A stretch of DNA of 64,000 nucleotides from Candidatus Rokuibacteriota bacterium (GCA_016866775.1 VGLJ01000022.1:480-64479), one strand, 5' to 3'; positions 18,869-42,809 are shown, counted from the stretch's first letter. The notes: generated by a model from the letters alone, not told the origin. A program made the numbers and translations.

Positions 18869-19324
18869 ATGCCGGATGACACGCGAGAACCTGTAACGCT
18901 CGAGACGCTGCACCGGGATATGCAGGTCGGCTTCGCCGACCTGAAGAGCACGTTGATCTCAGGGTTCCGCGGCTTGCCGGGCCGGGAGACGGCTGAAGAA
19001 ATGGTGCGGCTGCTTCGCGAGGGCAACCGCATCCAGGAGACCCGCCTCATCGAGCTCGACGTCCTTGCGCAGCAACGTCACATGGAGCTGGACACGCTCA
19101 TCCGGCGGCAGCACCTCGAGACACACCAGATCCTCGGCGAAACCCACGAGATCCTCCGCGCAATGGCCGAGGAACACCGCGGAACCCGACAGACCCTCGA
19201 GGACGCGCGCGTCGAGACCCAGCAGGCCCTCCGTGCGCTCAGCGAGGAGATTCGACGTCTGGCCGCCCAGATCAGGGCACTGATCCGGGGGCGCCGCAAC
19301 GGGGGCGACGCTACTCGAGGTTGA
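18869..19324 (+). CDS. hypothetical coiled-coil protein
   Basis: Heptad-like, Q/E/R/L-rich sequence ([49 protein letters not shown]). The start is uncertain (18848 or 18869). Confidence 0.4.
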
Positions 19325-21241
19325 AGCGCTTCAGGCGGGTGTAGAGCTGCGAACGGCTGAGGCCGAGGATCGCGGCGGCGCGCGAACGGGTCCCCTTCGC
19401 TGTCCTGAGCGCGTCGGTGACCATCTGCCGCTCCCAGTCTGCGAGCGACTGATGCCCGTCACCTGATTCGGTCCGCGCGGGTGTGGTCTCCGCCACGGCG
19501 GGGGACGAGGCGCCGCCACGCCCCCCGCGGGGGGCCGCGATCGCGAGCTGCGCCGCCGTGATCAACCCACCGTCCGACACGATCAAGGCGCGCTCGATCG
19601 CGTTCGACAGCTCGCGGATGTTGCCCGGCCACGAGTGAGAGAGCAGGACGTCGCGCGCGTCGCGGCTCAAGCCCGGCTCGCCCTTGCCCATGCGGCTGCC
19701 GATCTCGCGCACGACGTGGTCGGCGAGCAGGAGGACGTCGTCACCGCGCTCGCGCAGCGGCGGCAGATGCACGGCGAACACGTTCAGGCGATAGAAGAGG
19801 TCCTCGCGGAACCGGCCCGTGTCGACTTCACGTTCGAGATCCCGATTGGTGGCGGCGATGACCCGGACGTCGGCGCGAATCGTCGCCGTGCCGCCGACGC
19901 GCTGGAACTCGCGCTCCTGCAGGACGCGCAGGAACTTCGCCTGGACCGCGGCCGACAGCTCGCCCATCTCGTCGAGGAACAGCGTGCCGCCCTGCGCCTG
20001 CTCGAAGCGGCCCGGCCGCTGGCGATCGGCGCCGGTGAACGCGCCCTCCTCGTGCCCGAAGAGCTCGGACTCGAGCAGCGTGTCGGGCAGCGCGGCGCAG
20101 TTCACGGCGACGAACGGTCCGTTCGACCGCGTGCTGCCGTGATGGATCGCGTGCGCGACCAGCTCCTTGCCCGTGCCGCTCTCGCCCGTGAGCAGCACGG
20201 TGGTGTCCGTCGTCGCCACCTTCGCCGCGCGCTGCAGCTCCTGACGCAGCGCCGGCGCGCGGCCGACGATGCGGTCGAAGCCGTAGCGCTCGCCGAGCTC
20301 CGTGCGCAGCGACTCCAGGCGCTCTTCCAGGCGGCGCGCGCGCCCGCGCTCCTCACCGAGCCGCTGGTGCTGGATCGCGAGCACGACTTGCGCGGCGATC
20401 GCGCCGGCGTCCGACGCATCGAACCAGTTCGGACGCTGCTTGCCGAAGTAGAGGCCGCCGCCGACGCGCTCCCCGAACCTCAGCGGCAGCGCCATCACCG
20501 AGCGCCCGCCGCCCTCGATGATGAGGTGGTCGCCGGGGAGCGAGGGATCGGGCTCGGTCGTCGCGTCGTGGGTGATCACGGCCTCGCCGCGCAGCACGCG
20601 CGCCGCCATCGAGAAGCTGTCGAGCGGCATCCGCGGGGCGTCGGCACGTGCGCCTGATCCTCGGGATTGACCTCGGCGATGACGTCGATGTCGCGGCCGC
20701 TCGGCGTCACGATGCCCACGCCCATCACGTCGAAGTCCATCGCCGGCCGCACGGTCTCGGCCACGCGCTCGAAGACTTCCTTCACGTTGAGCGTGGAGCC
20801 CGGCACCACGGGCAGCCGCTCGAGCGCCGTCATGCGCTCGCGCCGGCGCCGCTCGCGCGGGCGCAGCACCGCGTTGTCGACGGCGGGCGCGATGTGGTCC
20901 GCGACGTGACGGCCGAGCGTCACGTGCCCCTCGGTGTAGGCGCCGGGGGTCAAGGAGGGCCCACTCCGAGACCGTGTAGCGCGCCTCGCGCTCGACGTCG
21001 GTCGTGTAGTGGTCCTCGTGCACACGGGGCCACGCACGACGTGCTCCGCGAACACGCGGAACGTGCGGCCGTTCTCGTCGAGCGCGTCGACGACGAGCCG
21101 ATCGTGCGGGAGCACGGGCTGGAGCACGTCGGACAGCGCGGCGAGCACGCGGTCCCGCGGCACGTCGTCGCGCAGCGAGACGGCGACGGAAGCAAGCGAC
21201 GCCCCGAGATCCCCGACGGGATGCGGATCGTGCGCGGCCAC
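19311..21241 (-). pseudogene. sigma-54-dependent (NtrC/Fis-type) transcriptional activator with N-terminal GAF domains, disrupted by three frame breaks
   Basis: AAA+ sigma-54 core ([22 protein letters not shown]) and a C-terminal Fis HTH in ORF 19311..21023. The GAF region switches frame at ~21020, ~20948 and ~20635. The GTG start overlaps the pfk TAG by 1 nt. Confidence 0.7.
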
Positions 21242-37684: not shown

Positions 37685-37987
37685 CAGCTCGATCAAGACC
37701 TCCCCGCCTTCGACCACGACCGGATAGACCGGAACGCGAGCGTCGCGTGCGGGAGCGCGGCAGGCGCCCGTCGTCAGGTCCCAGACCCAGCCGTGATACG
37801 GGCACGTGACCGCGCCGTCCGCGACCGTCCCTTCGCTGAGCGGGCCGCCGGCGTGCGGACAGTTCTCCGCGAGCGCGTGGACCGTGTCGCCGCGCCGGAC
37901 CAGCGCGATGCGCCGGCCGTCCACTACCAGCAGGACGGGGCGATCGACGGGAAGCGCGTCGAGGCGCCCGGCGGCGAGACGAGGCAT
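37679..37987 (-). CDS. Rieske [2Fe-2S] domain ferredoxin (NirD-like small subunit)
   Basis: CPHAGGPL...CPYHGW (CxH-x17-CxxH); 102 aa; TAG stop. Confidence 0.85.
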   Translation of the reverse strand: MPRLAAGRLDALPVDRPVLLVVDGRRIALVRRGDTVHALAENCPHAGGPLSEGTVADGAVTCPYHGWVWDLTTGACRAPARDARVPVYPVVVEGGEVLIELP

Positions 37988-38071
37988 GCCGCTACTCTAC
38001 GGGTCTCTCGTGCTAGGCTCACCGCCGAAGTGCGGGACCGGAAATCTCCTGCCGTTCCGCTGACGATCGCG

Positions 38072-40787
38072 ATGCTGGGCGGGTTCGAGGCGCGCGTCGG
38101 TGACGAGGGGCCTCCCGTCGTGCTGGCCAAGCGCAAGGCCCAGGCGCTGCTCGCGTATCTCGCGGTCCCGCTGGGCCAGCCGCACCCGCGCGAAGAGCTG
38201 GCGACCCTCCTCTGGGGCGACGTCGACGACAGCGACGCGCGCAACAGCCTGCGGCAGACGCTCTTCCTGATCCGCCGCGCGCTCCCGGACGGCGCCGCCG
38301 CCTATCTCGAGGTCGGGCGCGACACCGTCGCGCTGTCTTCCACCGCCGTCCGCACCGACGTCGCGCGCTTCGAGCGCCGCCTCGCGGCCGGGGCGCCGGA
38401 CACGCTCGAGCGCGGGATCGAGCTCTACCGCGGCGATTTCCTCCACGGGTTCGCGCTCGACGAGGCCGGGTTCGAGGAGTGGATGACCGCCGAGCGGGAG
38501 CGTCTGCGCGGCCTCGTGCGCGGCGCGCTCTCGCGCGTGCTCGCGCGGTACGCGGACGCGGGCGACGTCGCGCGCGCGCTCGAGGTCGGGCGGCGCGTCC
38601 TCGCCCTCGATCCGCTCGACGAGCCGGCGCATCGCGCGCTCATGCGGCTGCACGCGCGCCGGGGCCACCACGCGGCGGCGCTGCGCCAGTACCAGCTCTG
38701 CGTGAGCGTGCTCGAGCGGGAGCTCGAGGTCGAGCCCGACGCCGAGACGCGCGAGCTTTACCGGACACTCGTCCGCGAGCGCGCCGCGCAGCGCGTGCCC
38801 GAGCTCGCGCTCGGCGAGCGCGACCCGGTGGAGACGGCGCTGATCGGACGCGACGTCGAGTTGCGGCGCCTCGAGGACGCCCTCGCGGGCGCCGCGCCGA
38901 GTGTCGTCGCGATCCTCGGTGACGCCGGCATCGGCAAGACGCGGCTCGTTCGCGAGTTCACGGCGATGGCGACGGCCGCGGGCCGCCGGGTCATCGTCGG
39001 CCGCTGCCACGACGCGGAAGGGATCCAGCCGTTCCGTCCGTGGGTCGAAGCCCTGCGCGGCGCCGGCCTGACGGCCGACGACACCGCGCTCGCGGCGCTC
39101 GCGCCGGCGTGGCGCGCGGAGCCGGCGCGTCTCTTCCCCGAGCTCTCGACCGAGACGCCGGCGGCCGTCGACACGGAGAACGTTCTCCAGCTCTTCGAGG
39201 CGCTCGCACGGCTCATCCTCGACGCGGCCGCGCGCGCGCCGCTCGCGATCGTGCTCGAGGACCTCCAGTGGGCGGACGAGATGACGCTGCGGTTCCTCTC
39301 CTTCCTCGTCCATCGCAGCGGGGACCGTCCGATCCTCCTCGCGGCGACCGCACGCGAGGACGAAGCGGAGCAGGTCCCGCTCCTCGGACGCATCGCGCGC
39401 GAGCTCGACCGCGAGGGCCGGCTGCTGCGCGTTCCGCTCGCGCCGCTCGGGCGCCCGGCGAGCGACGCGCTCGTCGCGGCGCTCGCGCCGTCCGCCACCG
39501 GCGACGCGGCGCTCGCCGAGCGCGTGTGGAGCGTGAGCGAGGGCAATCCGCTCGTCGCGGTCGAGATGATCCGTGCCGCGCGCTCGCTCGGCGGGGACTT
39601 GCCGGAGCTTCCACGCGGCGGAAGCCTGGGAGCCGGCGGTGGAGCACCTGCGCGAAGCGGGACTCACGGCGTATCGGCGCGGCGGGTCTCGCGAGGCCGC
39701 CACGTGCTTCCGGCGCGCGCTCGACGCGCACGCGCGCCTGCCGCGCACGGATGACTGGAAGCGCGCCGCCATCGATCTCCGCTTCGACTTCCGCCACGCC
39801 GTGGTGCCGATCGCCGAGATGGCGGACCTCGGTGACCTGCTCGGCGAGTGCGAGCGCTTCGCCACGGAGCTCCACGATCGCCCGCGGCTCGCGCGCACGT
39901 GGGCATTCCTCGGGCATCACCACTGGTGGTTCGGCGGCCACGAGCGTGCCGCCGACTATTGCCGTCGCGCGCTCGGTGTCGCGAGCGCTCAGGGCGACCG
40001 TGCCCTTCAGATCTCGACGACCATGTATCTCGGCCTCGCGTTCCTCGCGCAGGGCGCCTATCGCGCGGCGGAGCGCCTCTTCCGCGCGCTGGTCGGCAGC
40101 GAAGGCAGCGGCCTCACGCGCGAGCGGTTCGGGGTGGCGATCGTCGGCGTGTCCTCGCGCGCCTACCTCGCGATGGTCCTGGCGGAGATCGGCGACCTCG
40201 CGGAAGGCGCGGCCGTGGCCGACGACGCCGTGCGGCTCGCCGAGCCCATGCGACACCCGTTCGCGCTCGCGCACGCCTACGTCGGGGCGGCGTCGGTCGC
40301 GCTCGCGGCGGACGACCACGACCGCGCGATCCGGCTGTTCGAGTGGTATCAGGCGGAGCTCGCCCGCATGGGGGCAGGCGAGGCGTGGCCGCTCGCCGAC
40401 TGGTATGCGGGCCTCGCGTACGTCCGCGCGGGCCGCGTCGAGCGCGGCTTGGCACTCCTCGAGCCGATTCGCGATCCGGCCCGCGCGGTGACGGGCGGGC
40501 TGAGCCGCTCGCTGGTCGGCGCCTGGGTCGCCGAGGCCCACCTCGCGGCGGGACATCCCGTCGAGGCGCTGACCTTCGCGGAGTCGGCGCGGGCGCTCGC
40601 CCACGAGCACGGGGAGCGCGGGTACGAGGCGGCGGCGCTGCTGGTGCTGGCCGACGTCACGGCCCGGCGTGACCTCGCGGCCGCCTCGGAGCACTACACG
40701 GCCGCGCGGAAGATCGCCGCGGAGCTCGGCATGCGCCCGCTCGCCGCGCGGTGCGCCAGGGCGGAAGCCGCCCTGGTCGGTCCCTGA
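38072..40787 (+). pseudogene. AfsR/SARP-like STAND regulator (winged helix, BTAD, P-loop NTPase, C-terminal TPR-like repeats) with one frame break
   Basis: LLGGFEARV...LAYLAV (OmpR/SARP wHTH), a BTAD region, and the Walker A GDAGIGKT. The frame changes at ~39600-39615 between ORF 37793..39754 and ORF 39573..40787, which carries the TPR-like tail. Confidence 0.65.
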
Positions 40788-40935
40788 TCATTCTTGCCCG
40801 GTCCGGTCAACTCTCGAGCGCCCCGGCCTGACGCCTCCGCCCGGAGACCCGCGATTTTGGCGGGGGTTCACGTTCGGCACGCCTTTTGAGCGCCCTTGTG
40901 GGTGAGCCACTCGCGAGAGCAGGGAGGCGACGGGG

Positions 40936-41019
40936 ATGAAGTGCACGGTCTGCGGATGTGATCGCCGAATGCTCTGCACGAAGTGCCGGGAGGGCCGCCA
41001 CTCGGGCTGCGGCAAGTAG
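40936..41019 (+). CDS. 27-aa cysteine-rich (zinc-ribbon-like) mini-ORF; not in the ORF track
   Basis: MKCTVCGCDRRMLCTKCREGRHSGCGK, six Cys arranged as CxxCxC-x5-CxxC-x7-C. A GGAGG Shine-Dalgarno lies 9 nt upstream. It is 57 nt before the next gene. Confidence 0.35.
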   Translation: MKCTVCGCDRRMLCTKCREGRHSGCGK

Positions 41020-41076
41020 CCACGGTATGATCGGCCCCCTCCGGGGATGCCCCGACTCTCACGAGGAGGACCGATC

Positions 41077-41427
41077 ATGCCGTCTCAGGGCCGCTATCTG
41101 TTCATCGCCGCGATGGACGTCGAGCCTGCCAAGGAAGCTCTGTTCAACGAGGTCTACGACCAGGAGCACGTCCCGAGCCTGATCAAGGTGCCGGGCCTCA
41201 TCTCCGTCGCGCGCTTCCGCCGCGAGCCGCTCACGATGTCGATCGGGGGCGAGCTGAAGACCATCGACCTCACGGACGAGCCGCGGTACACCGCCCTCTA
41301 CGAGGTCGAAGGGCCCGACGTGATGTCGACCGCCGCGTGGGGCAAGGCCGTCGAGGAAGGCCGGTGGCCGGCGCAGGTCCGGCCGTACACGAAGAACCGC
41401 AAGCACACGCTCTGGCGGAGGCTCTAG
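41077..41427 (+). CDS. hypothetical protein, possibly a DUF4286-like alpha/beta-barrel protein
   Basis: 116 aa from MPSQGRYLFIAAMDVEP...EVYDQEHVPSLIKVPGLISVARFRRE. GAGGAGGA lies before the ATG. The family name is a weak recollection. Confidence 0.4.
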   Translation: MPSQGRYLFIAAMDVEPAKEALFNEVYDQEHVPSLIKVPGLISVARFRREPLTMSIGGELKTIDLTDEPRYTALYEVEGPDVMSTAAWGKAVEEGRWPAQVRPYTKNRKHTLWRRL

Positions 41428-42809
41428 CCCAGGAAGTCGCGGACCAGCGCCTCCCACATCGCGGCCGAGAGGCCGAGCGATTCCGTGTCGATGCGCTCGT
41501 CGTTGCCGTGGAACATCAGCGGGTATTGCGTGTAGGGGATCCGCTGCGAGTGCAGCGCGAAGCCGTAGGACGGGACGCCCTTGAAGCGGAAGTAGCGGGC
41601 GTCCGTCCCGCCGCTCGTCATGCGCGGGATGATCGTGCTGCCCGGCACCAGCGCGCGCGTCACACGGGACATCGACTCGGCGAGCGGCGTCTCCAGCGGC
41701 GTGCGCGTCCCCGGCTGGCCGCGCGGCGCCTCGATCTCCACGCGCGAGGCCACGTCGCCGAGCGCCTCGCGCAGCATCGCGTCGACGTCGAGCGCGCTCA
41801 CGTCGGGCAGCGCGCGGATGTCGACGTCGATCGCGATGCGGTCCGGGATCACGTTCGACTTCGAGCCGCCGTAGCTCACGAGGTTGGGCGAGAACGTCGT
41901 GTGCGTGCACGCGTGGGCGAACCGCGCGAAGCCGAGCGGCTCGAGCGTGCGCAGCGTCTCCCACACGCGGTCGGGATCGGTCAGCGCCGCCGTCAGCTCC
42001 GGCGCCAGACCGAGCTCGCTCACGTAGCGCCGCCACTCGTCGAGGATGCGCGCCTTCGGCTGATACGCGGCGATCCGGCGCACCACGTCCGACGCCGTCA
42101 CGAGCGCGTTGTCGGTGCGGAACGGCATCGAGCCGTGGCCGGGTGTGCCCTTCACGATGAGCCGCCGGCGGTTGATGCCCTTCTCCGCCACCGTCACGGG
42201 CAGCTTGACGCCGTCGGGCGCGGGGATCGGCACGCCGCCGCTCTCGGTGATGACGTAGTCCGTCTTCACCGCGTCCCCGTGCTCGTCGACCAGGAACTTC
42301 GCGCCGTAGGTGCCGCCGGCCTCCTCGTCCGCGACGCCCAGATAGATCAGCGTGCCGCGCGGGCGAAAGCCGCTCGTCGCGAGCCGCCGCGTGGCGACGG
42401 CCATCGTGGCCGTGATGTGCAGCATGTCGGTCGCGCCCCGGCCCCACACGATGCCGTCGACGACGTCGCCGCCGAACGGATCGCGCTGCCAGCCTCCGGC
42501 GTTCGCCGGCACGACGTCCGTGTGACCCATGAGGAGGAGCGTCGGCGCGGCCCTGTCGCTGCCTTCGATGCGTGTGATCAGGCTCACGCGTCCGGGCGCG
42601 GCCGTGTAACGCTCGAACGTGAGCCCGGAGCCGGCGAAATACGCTTCGAGCGCGTCGGCGTTGCGGACTTCCTGACCCGAGGCCGGCGTGCCGTCGTTGA
42701 CGCATGCGTTGCGGATCATGGTCCGCAGGAGGTCGGTCGCCTCGCGTTCGAGGCTCCCGTCTGGACGCTGGTGCGTGGTCCGTGCCATGGTGCGCGGCGG
42801 CTCCGCCAT
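41424..42809 (-). CDS. M20-family metallopeptidase (ArgE/DapE/CPG2-like)
   Basis: GHTDVVP, GRGATDM and an EEAGG-type metal ligand region; ~462 aa. Confidence 0.75.
   Translation of the reverse strand: MAEPPRTMARTTHQRPDGSLEREATDLLRTMIRNACVNDGTPASGQEVRNADALEAYFAGSGLTFERYTAAPGRVSLITRIEGSDRAAPTLLLMGHTDVVPANAGGWQRDPFGGDVVDGIVWGRGATDMLHITATMAVATRRLATSGFRPRGTLIYLGVADEEAGGTYGAKFLVDEHGDAVKTDYVITESGGVPIPAPDGVKLPVTVAEKGINRRRLIVKGTPGHGSMPFRTDNALVTASDVVRRIAAYQPKARILDEWRRYVSELGLAPELTAALTDPDRVWETLRTLEPLGFARFAHACTHTTFSPNLVSYGGSKSNVIPDRIAIDVDIRALPDVSALDVDAMLREALGDVASRVEIEAPRGQPGTRTPLETPLAESMSRVTRALVPGSTIIPRMTSGGTDARYFRFKGVPSYGFALHSQRIPYTQYPLMFHGNDERIDTESLGLSAAMWEALVRDFLG

Follow-up and report, generated by a model that had tools for sequence, protein, structure and literature searches.

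A family of cysteine-rich microproteins with a candidate metal-binding core and a sigma-54-like upstream motif in Rokubacteria-type bacteria and phage-like DNA

In a 64,000-nucleotide stretch of DNA from a Candidatus Rokuibacteriota bacterium (hereafter the window), a reading frame of only 27 codons, six of them for cysteine, opens in the spacer ahead of a larger gene. The question raised by this locus is whether such a short frame is a gene at all and, if it is, what its product could do. A preliminary description had left three candidates, namely a metal-binding micro-protein, a regulatory uORF and a chance ORF in a GC-rich spacer. The first of these is the candidate that survives the comparison with relatives presented here, metal binding being deduced from the residues that the family conserves.

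The reading frame and its relatives

The features of the locus are collected in Table 1. The predicted product, MKCTVCGCDRRMLCTKCREGRHSGCGK, has Cys residues at positions 3, 6, 8, 14, 17 and 25 and a net charge of +5, and the GC3 of the frame is 23/27 by direct count. A six-Cys frame of 27 aa with CxxC...CxxC spacing was found exactly as first described, and the 57-nt gap to the next gene as well as the ribosome binding site of that gene were borne out; a GGAGG is indeed present upstream of the frame, at 8 nt from the ATG instead of the 9 nt claimed. The label 'DUF4286-like' given to the downstream 116-aa protein has to be abandoned, since this protein matched no Pfam family even at E<=10; its homologue at locus L133 was likewise without a DUF4286 match. 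The window has 92 ORFs of 20-60 aa that start with ATG, and the mini-ORF alone among them combines at least six Cys with the CxxC...CxxC spacing; in 30 first-order Markov simulations of the window, ORFs with six or more Cys averaged 0.17 per simulation, and no ORF had both features. The occurrence of this sole Cys-rich small ORF therefore exceeds chance.

Table 1. Features of the window that bear on the mini-ORF (positions counted from the first nucleotide of the window)
Feature	Coordinates	Strand	Basis and remarks
Enhancer-binding protein (bEBP) gene, GAF-Sigma54_activat-HTH_8	19311..21023	-	
BTAD + AAA_16 + TPR (SARP/STAND-type) regulator, broken	37793..40787	+	Pfam; frames 37793..39754 and 39573..40787
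Promoter-like motif GGCACGCCTTTTGAG	40876..40890	+	family consensus GGCACG-NN-TC-TTGAA; putative sigma-54 assignment
Shine-Dalgarno GGGAGG	40922..40927	+	read from sequence; 8 nt to mini-ORF ATG; GGAGG at 40923-40927
Microprotein gene, 27 codons + TAG	40936..41019	+	ORF read from sequence; ATG 40936, TAG 41017-41019
-10-like hexamer TATGAT	41026..41031	+	just past mini-ORF stop; candidate separate promoter of downstream gene
116-aa gene	41077..41427	+	ATG 41077; own RBS GAGGAGG; third gene after mini-ORF + bicupin in relatives

Relatives were sought at the DNA level, by scanning metagenome contigs with a degenerate pattern that fixed the six TGY codons and otherwise demanded only GAN for codon 9 and MRN for codons 16 and 18. 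This pattern matched once in the window and never in its shuffles. The scan returned at least 119 stretches, about half of which were obvious homologues, and these homologues together with the window and locus L001 provided at least 51 distinct core DNAs encoding 47 distinct core peptides. Members are plentiful in metagenomes from soil, groundwater and lakes.

The core that emerges is 23 residues long and reads C-x2-C-G-C-D-x-R-x-L-C-x2-C-R-x-G-R-[C/H]-x2-C. In the alignment of the matches listed, C3, C6, C8, D9, R11, C14, C17 and C25 were invariant, the invariance of Cys being partly by construction because the DNA pattern constrained the Cys codons, D/E9 and positions 16 and 18. Glu was permitted at position 9 by this pattern and was never seen, the residue being always Asp. 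In the same alignment G7 and R18 were conserved in at least 90% of the sequences, and L13, G20 and R21 strongly so. None of G7, R11, L13, R18, G20, R21 and C/H22 was fixed by the DNA pattern as a residue, G7 and R11 being demanded by the protein filter that defined the members; this filter removed only 2 family-like matches (both with Arg at position 7), plus a few doubtful ones. Position 22 was Cys in 39 of the 51 cores, as in the relative MKCSVCGCDRRMLCLRCREGRCTVCKK, His in the 9 that form the window's clade and Gly in the last 3.

Codon usage within the core was much freer than residue usage. At the pattern-free codons the entropy was 1.00, 0.86 and 1.55 bits for the first, second and third codon position, respectively. 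The unselected L13 was encoded by CTC (20), CTG (14), TTG (5), CTT (3), CTA (2) and TTA (1), and the equally unselected R21 by both CGN and AGR codons. At the two positions where the filter required the residue, G7 was written GGC (23), GGA (14), GGG (11) or GGT (3), and R11 used CGN codons plus AGG and AGA. Such conservation of amino acids together with synonymous, third-position variation is the pattern left by purifying selection on the peptide. When the substitutions that separate the window from L001 were read in the antisense frame, they were non-synonymous (by inspection).

Members also share the architecture of a translated gene. Among those with enough upstream DNA, 25 start with M-K/R-C, most of these with a GGAGG 5-10 nt ahead of the ATG, and the family ORFs stop 2-21 codons past C25, across sequences whose GC content ranges from 0.37 to 0.73. 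The peptides are usually 27 to about 50 aa long (rare members reach 86 aa), with a net charge of +3 to +9 (median +6) and a median of 0 aromatic residues. The check proposed at the outset, whether relatives share the frame and the positions of the Cys residues, thus came out in favor of the ORF, both being kept with the Shine-Dalgarno sequence and the early stop in at least 51 distinct relatives. Altogether, we consider it almost certain, from these comparisons, that the mini-ORF is a real, translated gene.

This family was hardly visible at the protein level. None of the eight family peptides that we looked up occurs in a collection of 15 billion proteins, and a phmmer search of 1.84 billion cluster representatives recovered only two relatives, P0001 (86 aa) and P0002 (65 aa), both of which carry long C-terminal tails; P0001 used as the query returned only itself, and a protein search with a concatenated query found no homologue. 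Common gene callers apply a length cut-off that excludes genes below about 30 codons, which is consistent with the invisibility of the family in public proteomes. A tblastn search of cultured phages and plasmids found no family member, and an E = 2 match in Microbacterium phages, on the strand opposite an annotated CDS, was discarded as spurious. No paper was found by a full-text literature search for the motif strings. In the libraries and literature searched there is thus no description of the family, of its ligand pattern or of the promoter-like motif dedicated to it; small zinc-finger microproteins as such are already known.

Genomic setting and the upstream motif

The closest relatives of the window locus were reached through the downstream 116-aa protein, which is 89% identical to a protein in an uncultured Rokubacteria MAG (L001) and 100% identical at the same locus in six contigs from other samples (L081-L086), in which the mini-ORF sequence is also identical. 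The L001 orthologue of the mini-ORF reads (MA)MKCSVCGCDRRMLCTKCREGRHTPCSAK. Over 25 aligned codons it differs from the window by 3 synonymous and 3 non-synonymous changes and by an in-frame 3-nt indel, and the intergenic DNA flanking the mini-ORF shows many indels between the two loci. Between the two loci, 14% of the mini-ORF codons that specify an identical residue differ synonymously, compared with 23% for the 116-aa gene and 39% for the TPR gene. Homologues of the 116-aa protein are widespread, and among the 80 genome loci retrieved with it only L001 has the mini-ORF, which indicates that the latter is not linked to the 116-aa gene. Moreover, the mini-ORF of L001 is separated from the 116-aa gene by a bicupin gene (349 aa); the gene it travels with is therefore the upstream regulator and not the 116-aa gene.

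In the window itself, this neighborhood is partly decayed. An intact homologue of the regulator, at L133, is 1102 aa long; its residues 15-551 align with window positions 38012-39613 and its residues 669-1051 with 39609-40742 in another frame, so that about 117 residues are missing from the window's regulator. The frame split is also called in other samples, and a clean deletion has removed the bicupin gene from the window. The mini-ORF, its Shine-Dalgarno sequence and the upstream motif remain intact in the window and identical across samples. With its unit intact amid a broken regulator and a deleted bicupin, the microprotein seems to be preserved independently of an operon in decay. The decayed look of the locus nevertheless makes the current role of the window copy uncertain. 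The conserved promoter-like motif and the linkage to the upstream regulator and to a bicupin gene (the one deleted here) are two features that the preliminary description did not mention.

Relatives of the window with His22 (L001, L090/L133, L102, L120/L147, L171 and L177) have a regular gene order: a regulator of about 1100 aa with BTAD, AAA_16 and TPR parts comes first, then the motif with the mini-ORF, then a bicupin (two Cupin_2 stretches in 347-353 aa), and last a 117-aa protein. In the alignment of this clade a TATGAT/TATCAT hexamer is conserved after the mini-ORF stop, and in 5 of 6 relatives it ends 8-9 nt ahead of the bicupin ATG (by eye), a geometry expected of a leaderless mRNA. This suggests that the bicupin may have a separate, leaderless transcript.

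Beyond this clade, the settings change. Family members come from Rokubacteria-like bacteria as well as from phage-like DNA, in at least 4 chromosomal contexts plus several phage-like ones. Members of one Cys22 clade lie between a divergent plsC-type acyltransferase gene and a convergent mltG/YceG gene followed by rpoA, the mini-ORF being convergent with mltG in 10 loci. Other chromosomal members precede a gene for a nitroreductase-domain protein or a pyridine-nucleotide-disulphide oxidoreductase. Members without the upstream motif often begin with ...PRC and sit amid rows of small uncharacterized genes together with phage markers, such as a family-A DNA polymerase (L116) or RecT (L141). An IMG/VR contig (L212) places a head-protease/major-head fusion beside a family member, further IMG/VR contigs (L211 and L213) also carry members, and P0001 is borne on a contig with HNH and DUF5675 genes. 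Among the neighbors that we tallied there was no recurrent maturase, transporter or metal-resistance gene.

In the upstream alignment of the window's clade, an island reading (C/G)GGCACG-NN-TC-TTGAA is conserved amid diverged DNA. The motif lies 47-77 nt ahead of the ATG in 23 of the 25 members that start with M[K/R]C and in none of the 29 other members, and the members that bear it span at least 3 different genomic contexts. The string GGCACG-N4-TTG[AT]A occurs 22 times in the 1.32 Mb of DNA examined, every time upstream of a mini-ORF, and only once in the 64-kb window. The consensus of the -24/-12 promoters recognized by sigma-54 is TGGCACG-N4-TTGCW, with GG at -25/-24 and the exact spacing GG-N10-GC, and the window motif fits this pattern except for the T at -26 and a C->A change at -12. 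The same departures hold for the family, where T is never present at -26 and the -12 base is A or T in 23/23 copies, the GGCACG-N4-TTG spacing being invariant in all 23. Sites bound by sigma-54 in Salmonella include STM0649.S, TGGCACGCCTTTTGATTA, with TTGA, and the GT variants at -12 of pspA and pspG (PMC3844500). On this model transcription would start near 40901 in the window, giving a predicted leader of about 35 nt.

No RpoN-box motif was detected within the 64-kb window, so rpoN itself is not seen there; the enhancer-binding protein gene of Table 1 suggests that the organism may use sigma-54. Scans for consensus sigma-70 promoters and for terminators found none, and neither scan nor inspection found a sigma-70-like -10 downstream of the motif. 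Dependence of the mini-ORF on sigma-54 is what we would regard as likely, if only modestly so. Alternatively, because the motif deviates at -26 and -12 and marks this gene only, it could be the site of a dedicated regulator instead. Two other readings of the DNA around the start were set aside. Pairing of an upstream RNA segment with the Shine-Dalgarno sequence was judged unlikely, the duplex energy being -14.7 kcal/mol with the member's own Shine-Dalgarno sequence and -13.9 kcal/mol with those of others; values so nearly equal show no covariation over and above the generic complementarity of pyrimidines with purines. Nor would such pairing account for the invariant GGCAC and TTGAA of the motif. 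Direct repeats of SARP type with an 11-nt spacing inside the ORF turned out to be only repeats of the peptide's K-C-T motif (by eye).

Metal binding, function and rival explanations

The residues that the family keeps would suit a metal site. Three CxxC-type knuckles are maintained, C3xxC6-G7, C14xxC17 and [C/H]22xxC25 (position 22 being Gly in 3 of the 51 cores), and the first of them is a classic CxxCG. A fourth pair would be the adjacent C8-D9, which brings the number of potential ligands to as many as eight in 23 residues (seven Cys/His plus Asp9); in the window's peptide the candidates are C3, C6, C8, D9, C14, C17, H22 and C25. The swap between Cys and His at position 22 is zinc-ligand-like. 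Neither His22 as a seventh ligand position (Cys in most relatives) nor the invariant Asp9 figured in the preliminary description.

Profile searches with a 49-sequence alignment against Pfam, NCBIfam and PDB sequences gave nothing significant, the best of the sub-threshold matches reaching E = 0.0036 for Pfam and E = 1.3 for PDB sequences. The weak HMM matches were all zinc fingers: the Rrn7 ribbon (0.0036), an IS91 Zn domain (0.034), the ANCHR B-box (0.062), zf-B_box (0.16), YnfU (0.073, for one member, in NCBIfam) and PHD (0.021, on P0001). The matches to the PHD/B-box/RING models (PF00628, PF00643 and PF22586), with best E values of 0.021 (PHD), 0.062 (ANCHR B-box) and 0.16 (zf-B_box), all stayed below gathering scores, and the weak matches among PDB sequences were the PML B-box and an FGD5 FYVE domain. 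An AlphaFold2 model, computed from the single sequence and with no metal, had a mean pLDDT of 77.7 and a short helix beginning at the C14xxC17 knuckle, where treble clefs have theirs; a Foldseek search of the PDB with this very short query found no match. According to the ligand pattern, the microprotein probably binds metal through its conserved Cys, His and Asp residues.

We propose the following scenario. The 23-residue core would most likely fold around zinc, with as many as eight ligands for two Zn(II) in a treble-clef or cross-brace arrangement, and the folded peptide would present a very basic surface to its partner, either nucleic acid or a protein with an acidic surface. On Rokubacteria-type chromosomes each member, the window's included, would be a self-contained unit, read from a sigma-54-type promoter through a leader of some 35-60 nt that holds a strong Shine-Dalgarno sequence. 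A promoter of this type would make expression conditional and dependent on an enhancer-binding protein. A cationic, aromatic-free peptide with conserved non-Cys positions favors a zinc-structured finger with a macromolecular partner, and it seems to us fairly likely that the gene is a conditional unit of sigma-54 type whose translated 27-aa zinc finger binds such a partner. Taken separately, the question whether the microprotein acts as a binding module rather than as a metal buffer appears evenly balanced. Only tentatively, and with more doubt than belief, may one go further and speculate on a minimal binuclear zinc finger (Cys7 or Cys6His plus Asp), a regulatory microprotein produced on demand through sigma-54 in bacteria and common to phage-like elements, which would bind nucleic acid, RNA polymerase or the ribosome.

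Several other explanations must be weighed against a zinc finger with a macromolecular partner. Their main representative is a metallothionein-like peptide, followed in decreasing order by an Fe-S or redox-thiol peptide, a uORF, a RiPP precursor and a chance ORF. A metallothionein-like buffer or chaperone would be a sponge whose thiolates take up Zn, Cd or Cu(I); it would be induced during metal stress by way of a sigma-54 activator that senses metal, and would sequester the metal or pass it on instead of binding a macromolecule. Such a sponge would account for a Cys+His content of about 24% and for the lack of aromatic residues. The sigma-54-type promoter would also fit, sigma-54 controlling the zinc-responsive zraP in Salmonella, and so would the metal-dependent cupin gene that adjoins the mini-ORF in the window's clade and the pyridine-nucleotide-disulphide oxidoreductase genes adjoining some other members. 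However, G7, D9, R11, L13, R18, G20 and R21 are as conserved as the Cys residues, which points to a defined fold or interface, and such conservation of non-Cys residues is unusual in metallothioneins. The strong positive charge would also be left unexplained, metal-resistance genes are absent from the neighbors tallied, and phage-like contigs with replication, recombination and head genes suit a regulatory finger better; we therefore hold the sponge to be unlikely, if worth keeping in mind. Seven Cys in CxxC motifs could also hold a small Fe-S cluster or form reversible disulfides, making the peptide a miniature electron carrier or redox sensor. Alternation of Cys and His is also known among Fe-S ligands, and some clades neighbor bicupin dioxygenase-like, nitroreductase or Pyr_redox_2 proteins. 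Yet this context is not conserved across the family, 27 residues would hardly shield a cluster at all, and no Fe-S motif family was matched in Pfam or NCBIfam, all of which makes a redox function improbable.

If the frame were a uORF, its translation would govern the downstream gene, for instance by sensing Cys-tRNA, and the peptide itself would be unimportant. The next gene is indeed 57 nt away on the same strand, and in the His22 clade the mini-ORF always stands directly ahead of the bicupin gene; but the non-Cys residues are under purifying selection, and in the largest clade mltG/YceG is convergent, which leaves nothing downstream for a uORF to regulate. The differing contexts, the phage-borne members lying in gene arrays and the -10-like hexamer proper to the bicupin (in the window, the strong RBS proper to the downstream gene) argue against a uORF, and the hexamer, contexts and phage-borne members against a RiPP precursor as well. 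The uORF proposed in the preliminary description thus finds no support in contexts so unrelated, which include a convergent next gene and phage-like DNA, and we give it very little credit. A RiPP precursor, the Cys-rich substrate of a radical SAM, MNIO or lanthipeptide synthetase maturase as known for SCIFF/ranthipeptides and methanobactin-like products, would be small, Cys-rich and unannotated like our peptide, and with six to seven Cys the latter resembles SCIFF. Among about 70 neighboring proteins scanned, however, none had a radical-SAM, MNIO/DUF692, LanB/C or peptidase-transporter domain, and the NCBIfam models of SCIFF-type precursors did not match; moreover, the conserved part starts at residue 2, so that a division into leader and core is absent. 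A precursor role is as improbable as that of a uORF. Finally, high-GC DNA produces many spurious ORFs, and the peptide is missing from the protein databases searched, as would be expected of a chance ORF or of a conserved non-coding DNA or RNA element that happens to be open. Such an origin is refuted in practice, and its probability negligible, given the synonymous variation with conserved Cys, frame and residues over at least 51 distinct sequences of GC 0.37-0.73, the in-frame indels, the conserved start, Shine-Dalgarno sequence and early stop, and an Rfam search of window positions 40000-42000 at E<=1 that returned no match.

If a two-metal site is indeed formed, the 23-residue core would be a candidate for a compact metal-binding scaffold, among the smallest for such a site, and, should the proposed arrangement hold, among the smallest cross-brace-like folds. 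A promoter-like motif that accompanies a single gene from one context to the next offers a handle on regulation in uncultured Rokubacteria/Methylomirabilota. The family is also an example of a microprotein common to bacterial chromosomes and phage-like contigs, and its recovery illustrates how a simple degenerate-codon scan finds microprotein families that are invisible to protein-level searches.

Comparison with known systems

The upstream motif resembles sigma-54 promoters, and in particular the Salmonella STM0649.S site, through its GGCACG-N4-TTG, its fixed spacing and the TTGA at -15 to -12. It departs from them in never having T at -26 and in being known only ahead of the mini-ORF gene, and no site for activator binding was identified.

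As regards the peptide, bacterial metallothioneins such as SmtA/BmtA and MymT are small proteins with about 25% Cys, few aromatic residues and, in some cases, His ligands. No homology to them was found in Pfam, NCBIfam or PDB sequences, and the microprotein differs in being half their size, in its conserved non-Cys residues and in its high positive charge. The CPxCG proteins of haloarchaea and YnfU of E. coli are stand-alone proteins of less than 70 aa with CxxC knuckles, often basic and often missed by annotation, some of them with regulatory roles. There is no sequence relationship between them and the microprotein, which is shorter (27-30 aa), has seven Cys/His plus an Asp within 23 residues instead of two CPxCG pairs, and is distributed among Rokubacteria-type bacteria and phage-like contigs.

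There is also a likeness in ligand order to the PHD, B-box, RING and FYVE domains, among which lie several of the weak HMM matches, none of them significant. In PHD fingers the stretch Cys3-x2-Cys4-x4-His5-x2-Cys6 has the very spacing of C14-x2-C17-x4-[H/C]22-x2-C25 in the microprotein, and the D-x-A-x-L-C-x2-C motif of B-box/ZZ domains, in which Asp can ligate Zn, resembles its D-x3-L-C-x2-C. In the microprotein up to eight ligands might likewise hold two Zn, and a helix is predicted to start at the second knuckle. Unlike these domains, which span 40-60 residues, the microprotein has a core of 23 and lacks the final Cys pair, in place of which it has C8 and D9. And whereas they are domains of eukaryotic proteins, the microprotein stands alone, in bacteria and on phage-like DNA.

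Deletion of the bicupin gene and the element left behind

In relatives, the mini-ORF is separated from the 116-aa gene by a bicupin gene (347-353 aa, with two Cupin_2 stretches). Comparison of window 41020..41076 with positions 1896..3000 of L001, a Rokubacteria MAG locus, showed that this gene is cleanly deleted in the window, where all that remains is the TATGAT element, along with a new spacer of 57 nt. A TATGAT/TATCAT hexamer is conserved in the alignment of the window with L001, L133, L102, L171 and L177; in these relatives it ends 8-9 nt ahead of the bicupin start codon, which is not preceded by a Shine-Dalgarno sequence. This arrangement suggests that translation of the bicupin starts on a leaderless mRNA. 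A −35 region or a SARP-regulator site, if present, would overlap the mini-ORF at its 3' end.

Features of the window and of related loci
Feature	Position	Strand	Remark
Disrupted BTAD-AAA_16-TPR regulator gene	window 37793..40787	+	aligned to the intact homologue of related locus L133
Inverted repeat CCCGC-GATTTTG-GCGGG	window 40848..40864		~12 nt 5' of the promoter-like motif
TATGAT hexamer	window 41026..41031		conserved as TATGAT/TATCAT in alignment with L001, L133, L102, L171, L177
Sigma-54 enhancer-binding protein gene	window 19311..21023	-	GAF, Sigma54_activat, AAA lid, HTH_8
'...PRC' members without ATG/GTG/TTG before the first Cys	L109 848-916; L118 505-573; L198 106-174	- (all)	also L162/L165
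50-aa gene	L081 1395..1547	-	same position in L082-L086

Regulatory genes and a possible regulator site in the window

The regulator gene upstream of the mini-ORF is broken. Compared with the L133 homologue (1102 aa), window 38012-39613 aligns with residues 15-551 in one frame and 39609-40742 with residues 669-1051 in a different one, and about 117 residues are absent. The same split was called in contigs from other samples, and it is therefore not an assembly error of the window. The inverted repeat could be a regulator binding site; a similar element, GCGATTTTCGCGG, is present in several, not all, relatives of the His22 clade (L001, L099, L177). The window also carries a sigma-54 activator with a GAFTGA motif, encoded about 20 kb from the mini-ORF.

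A further small conserved ORF lies in the upstream part of the window's locus. This 50-aa gene, between a Rieske-domain and an Amidohydro_2 gene, was called in every sample (L081-L086) and had no Pfam match.

Family members without a canonical start, and members on phage-like contigs

In several '...PRC' members, the stretch from the in-frame upstream stop to the first Cys contains no ATG, GTG or TTG; these members abut or overlap the preceding gene. L162 and L165 have GCG at the position of the GTG start of L181. Such members possibly use non-canonical starts, form C-terminal fingers fused by frameshifting, or are pseudogenes.

Searches of cultured phage and plasmid genomes revealed no member. 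Phage-like or IMG/VR viral contigs carry members (L116, L141, L211, L212, L213, L218), some with long C-terminal tails (P0001 reaches 86 aa), and their neighbours include DNA polymerase A, RecT, head-protease/major-head and HNH/DUF5675 genes.
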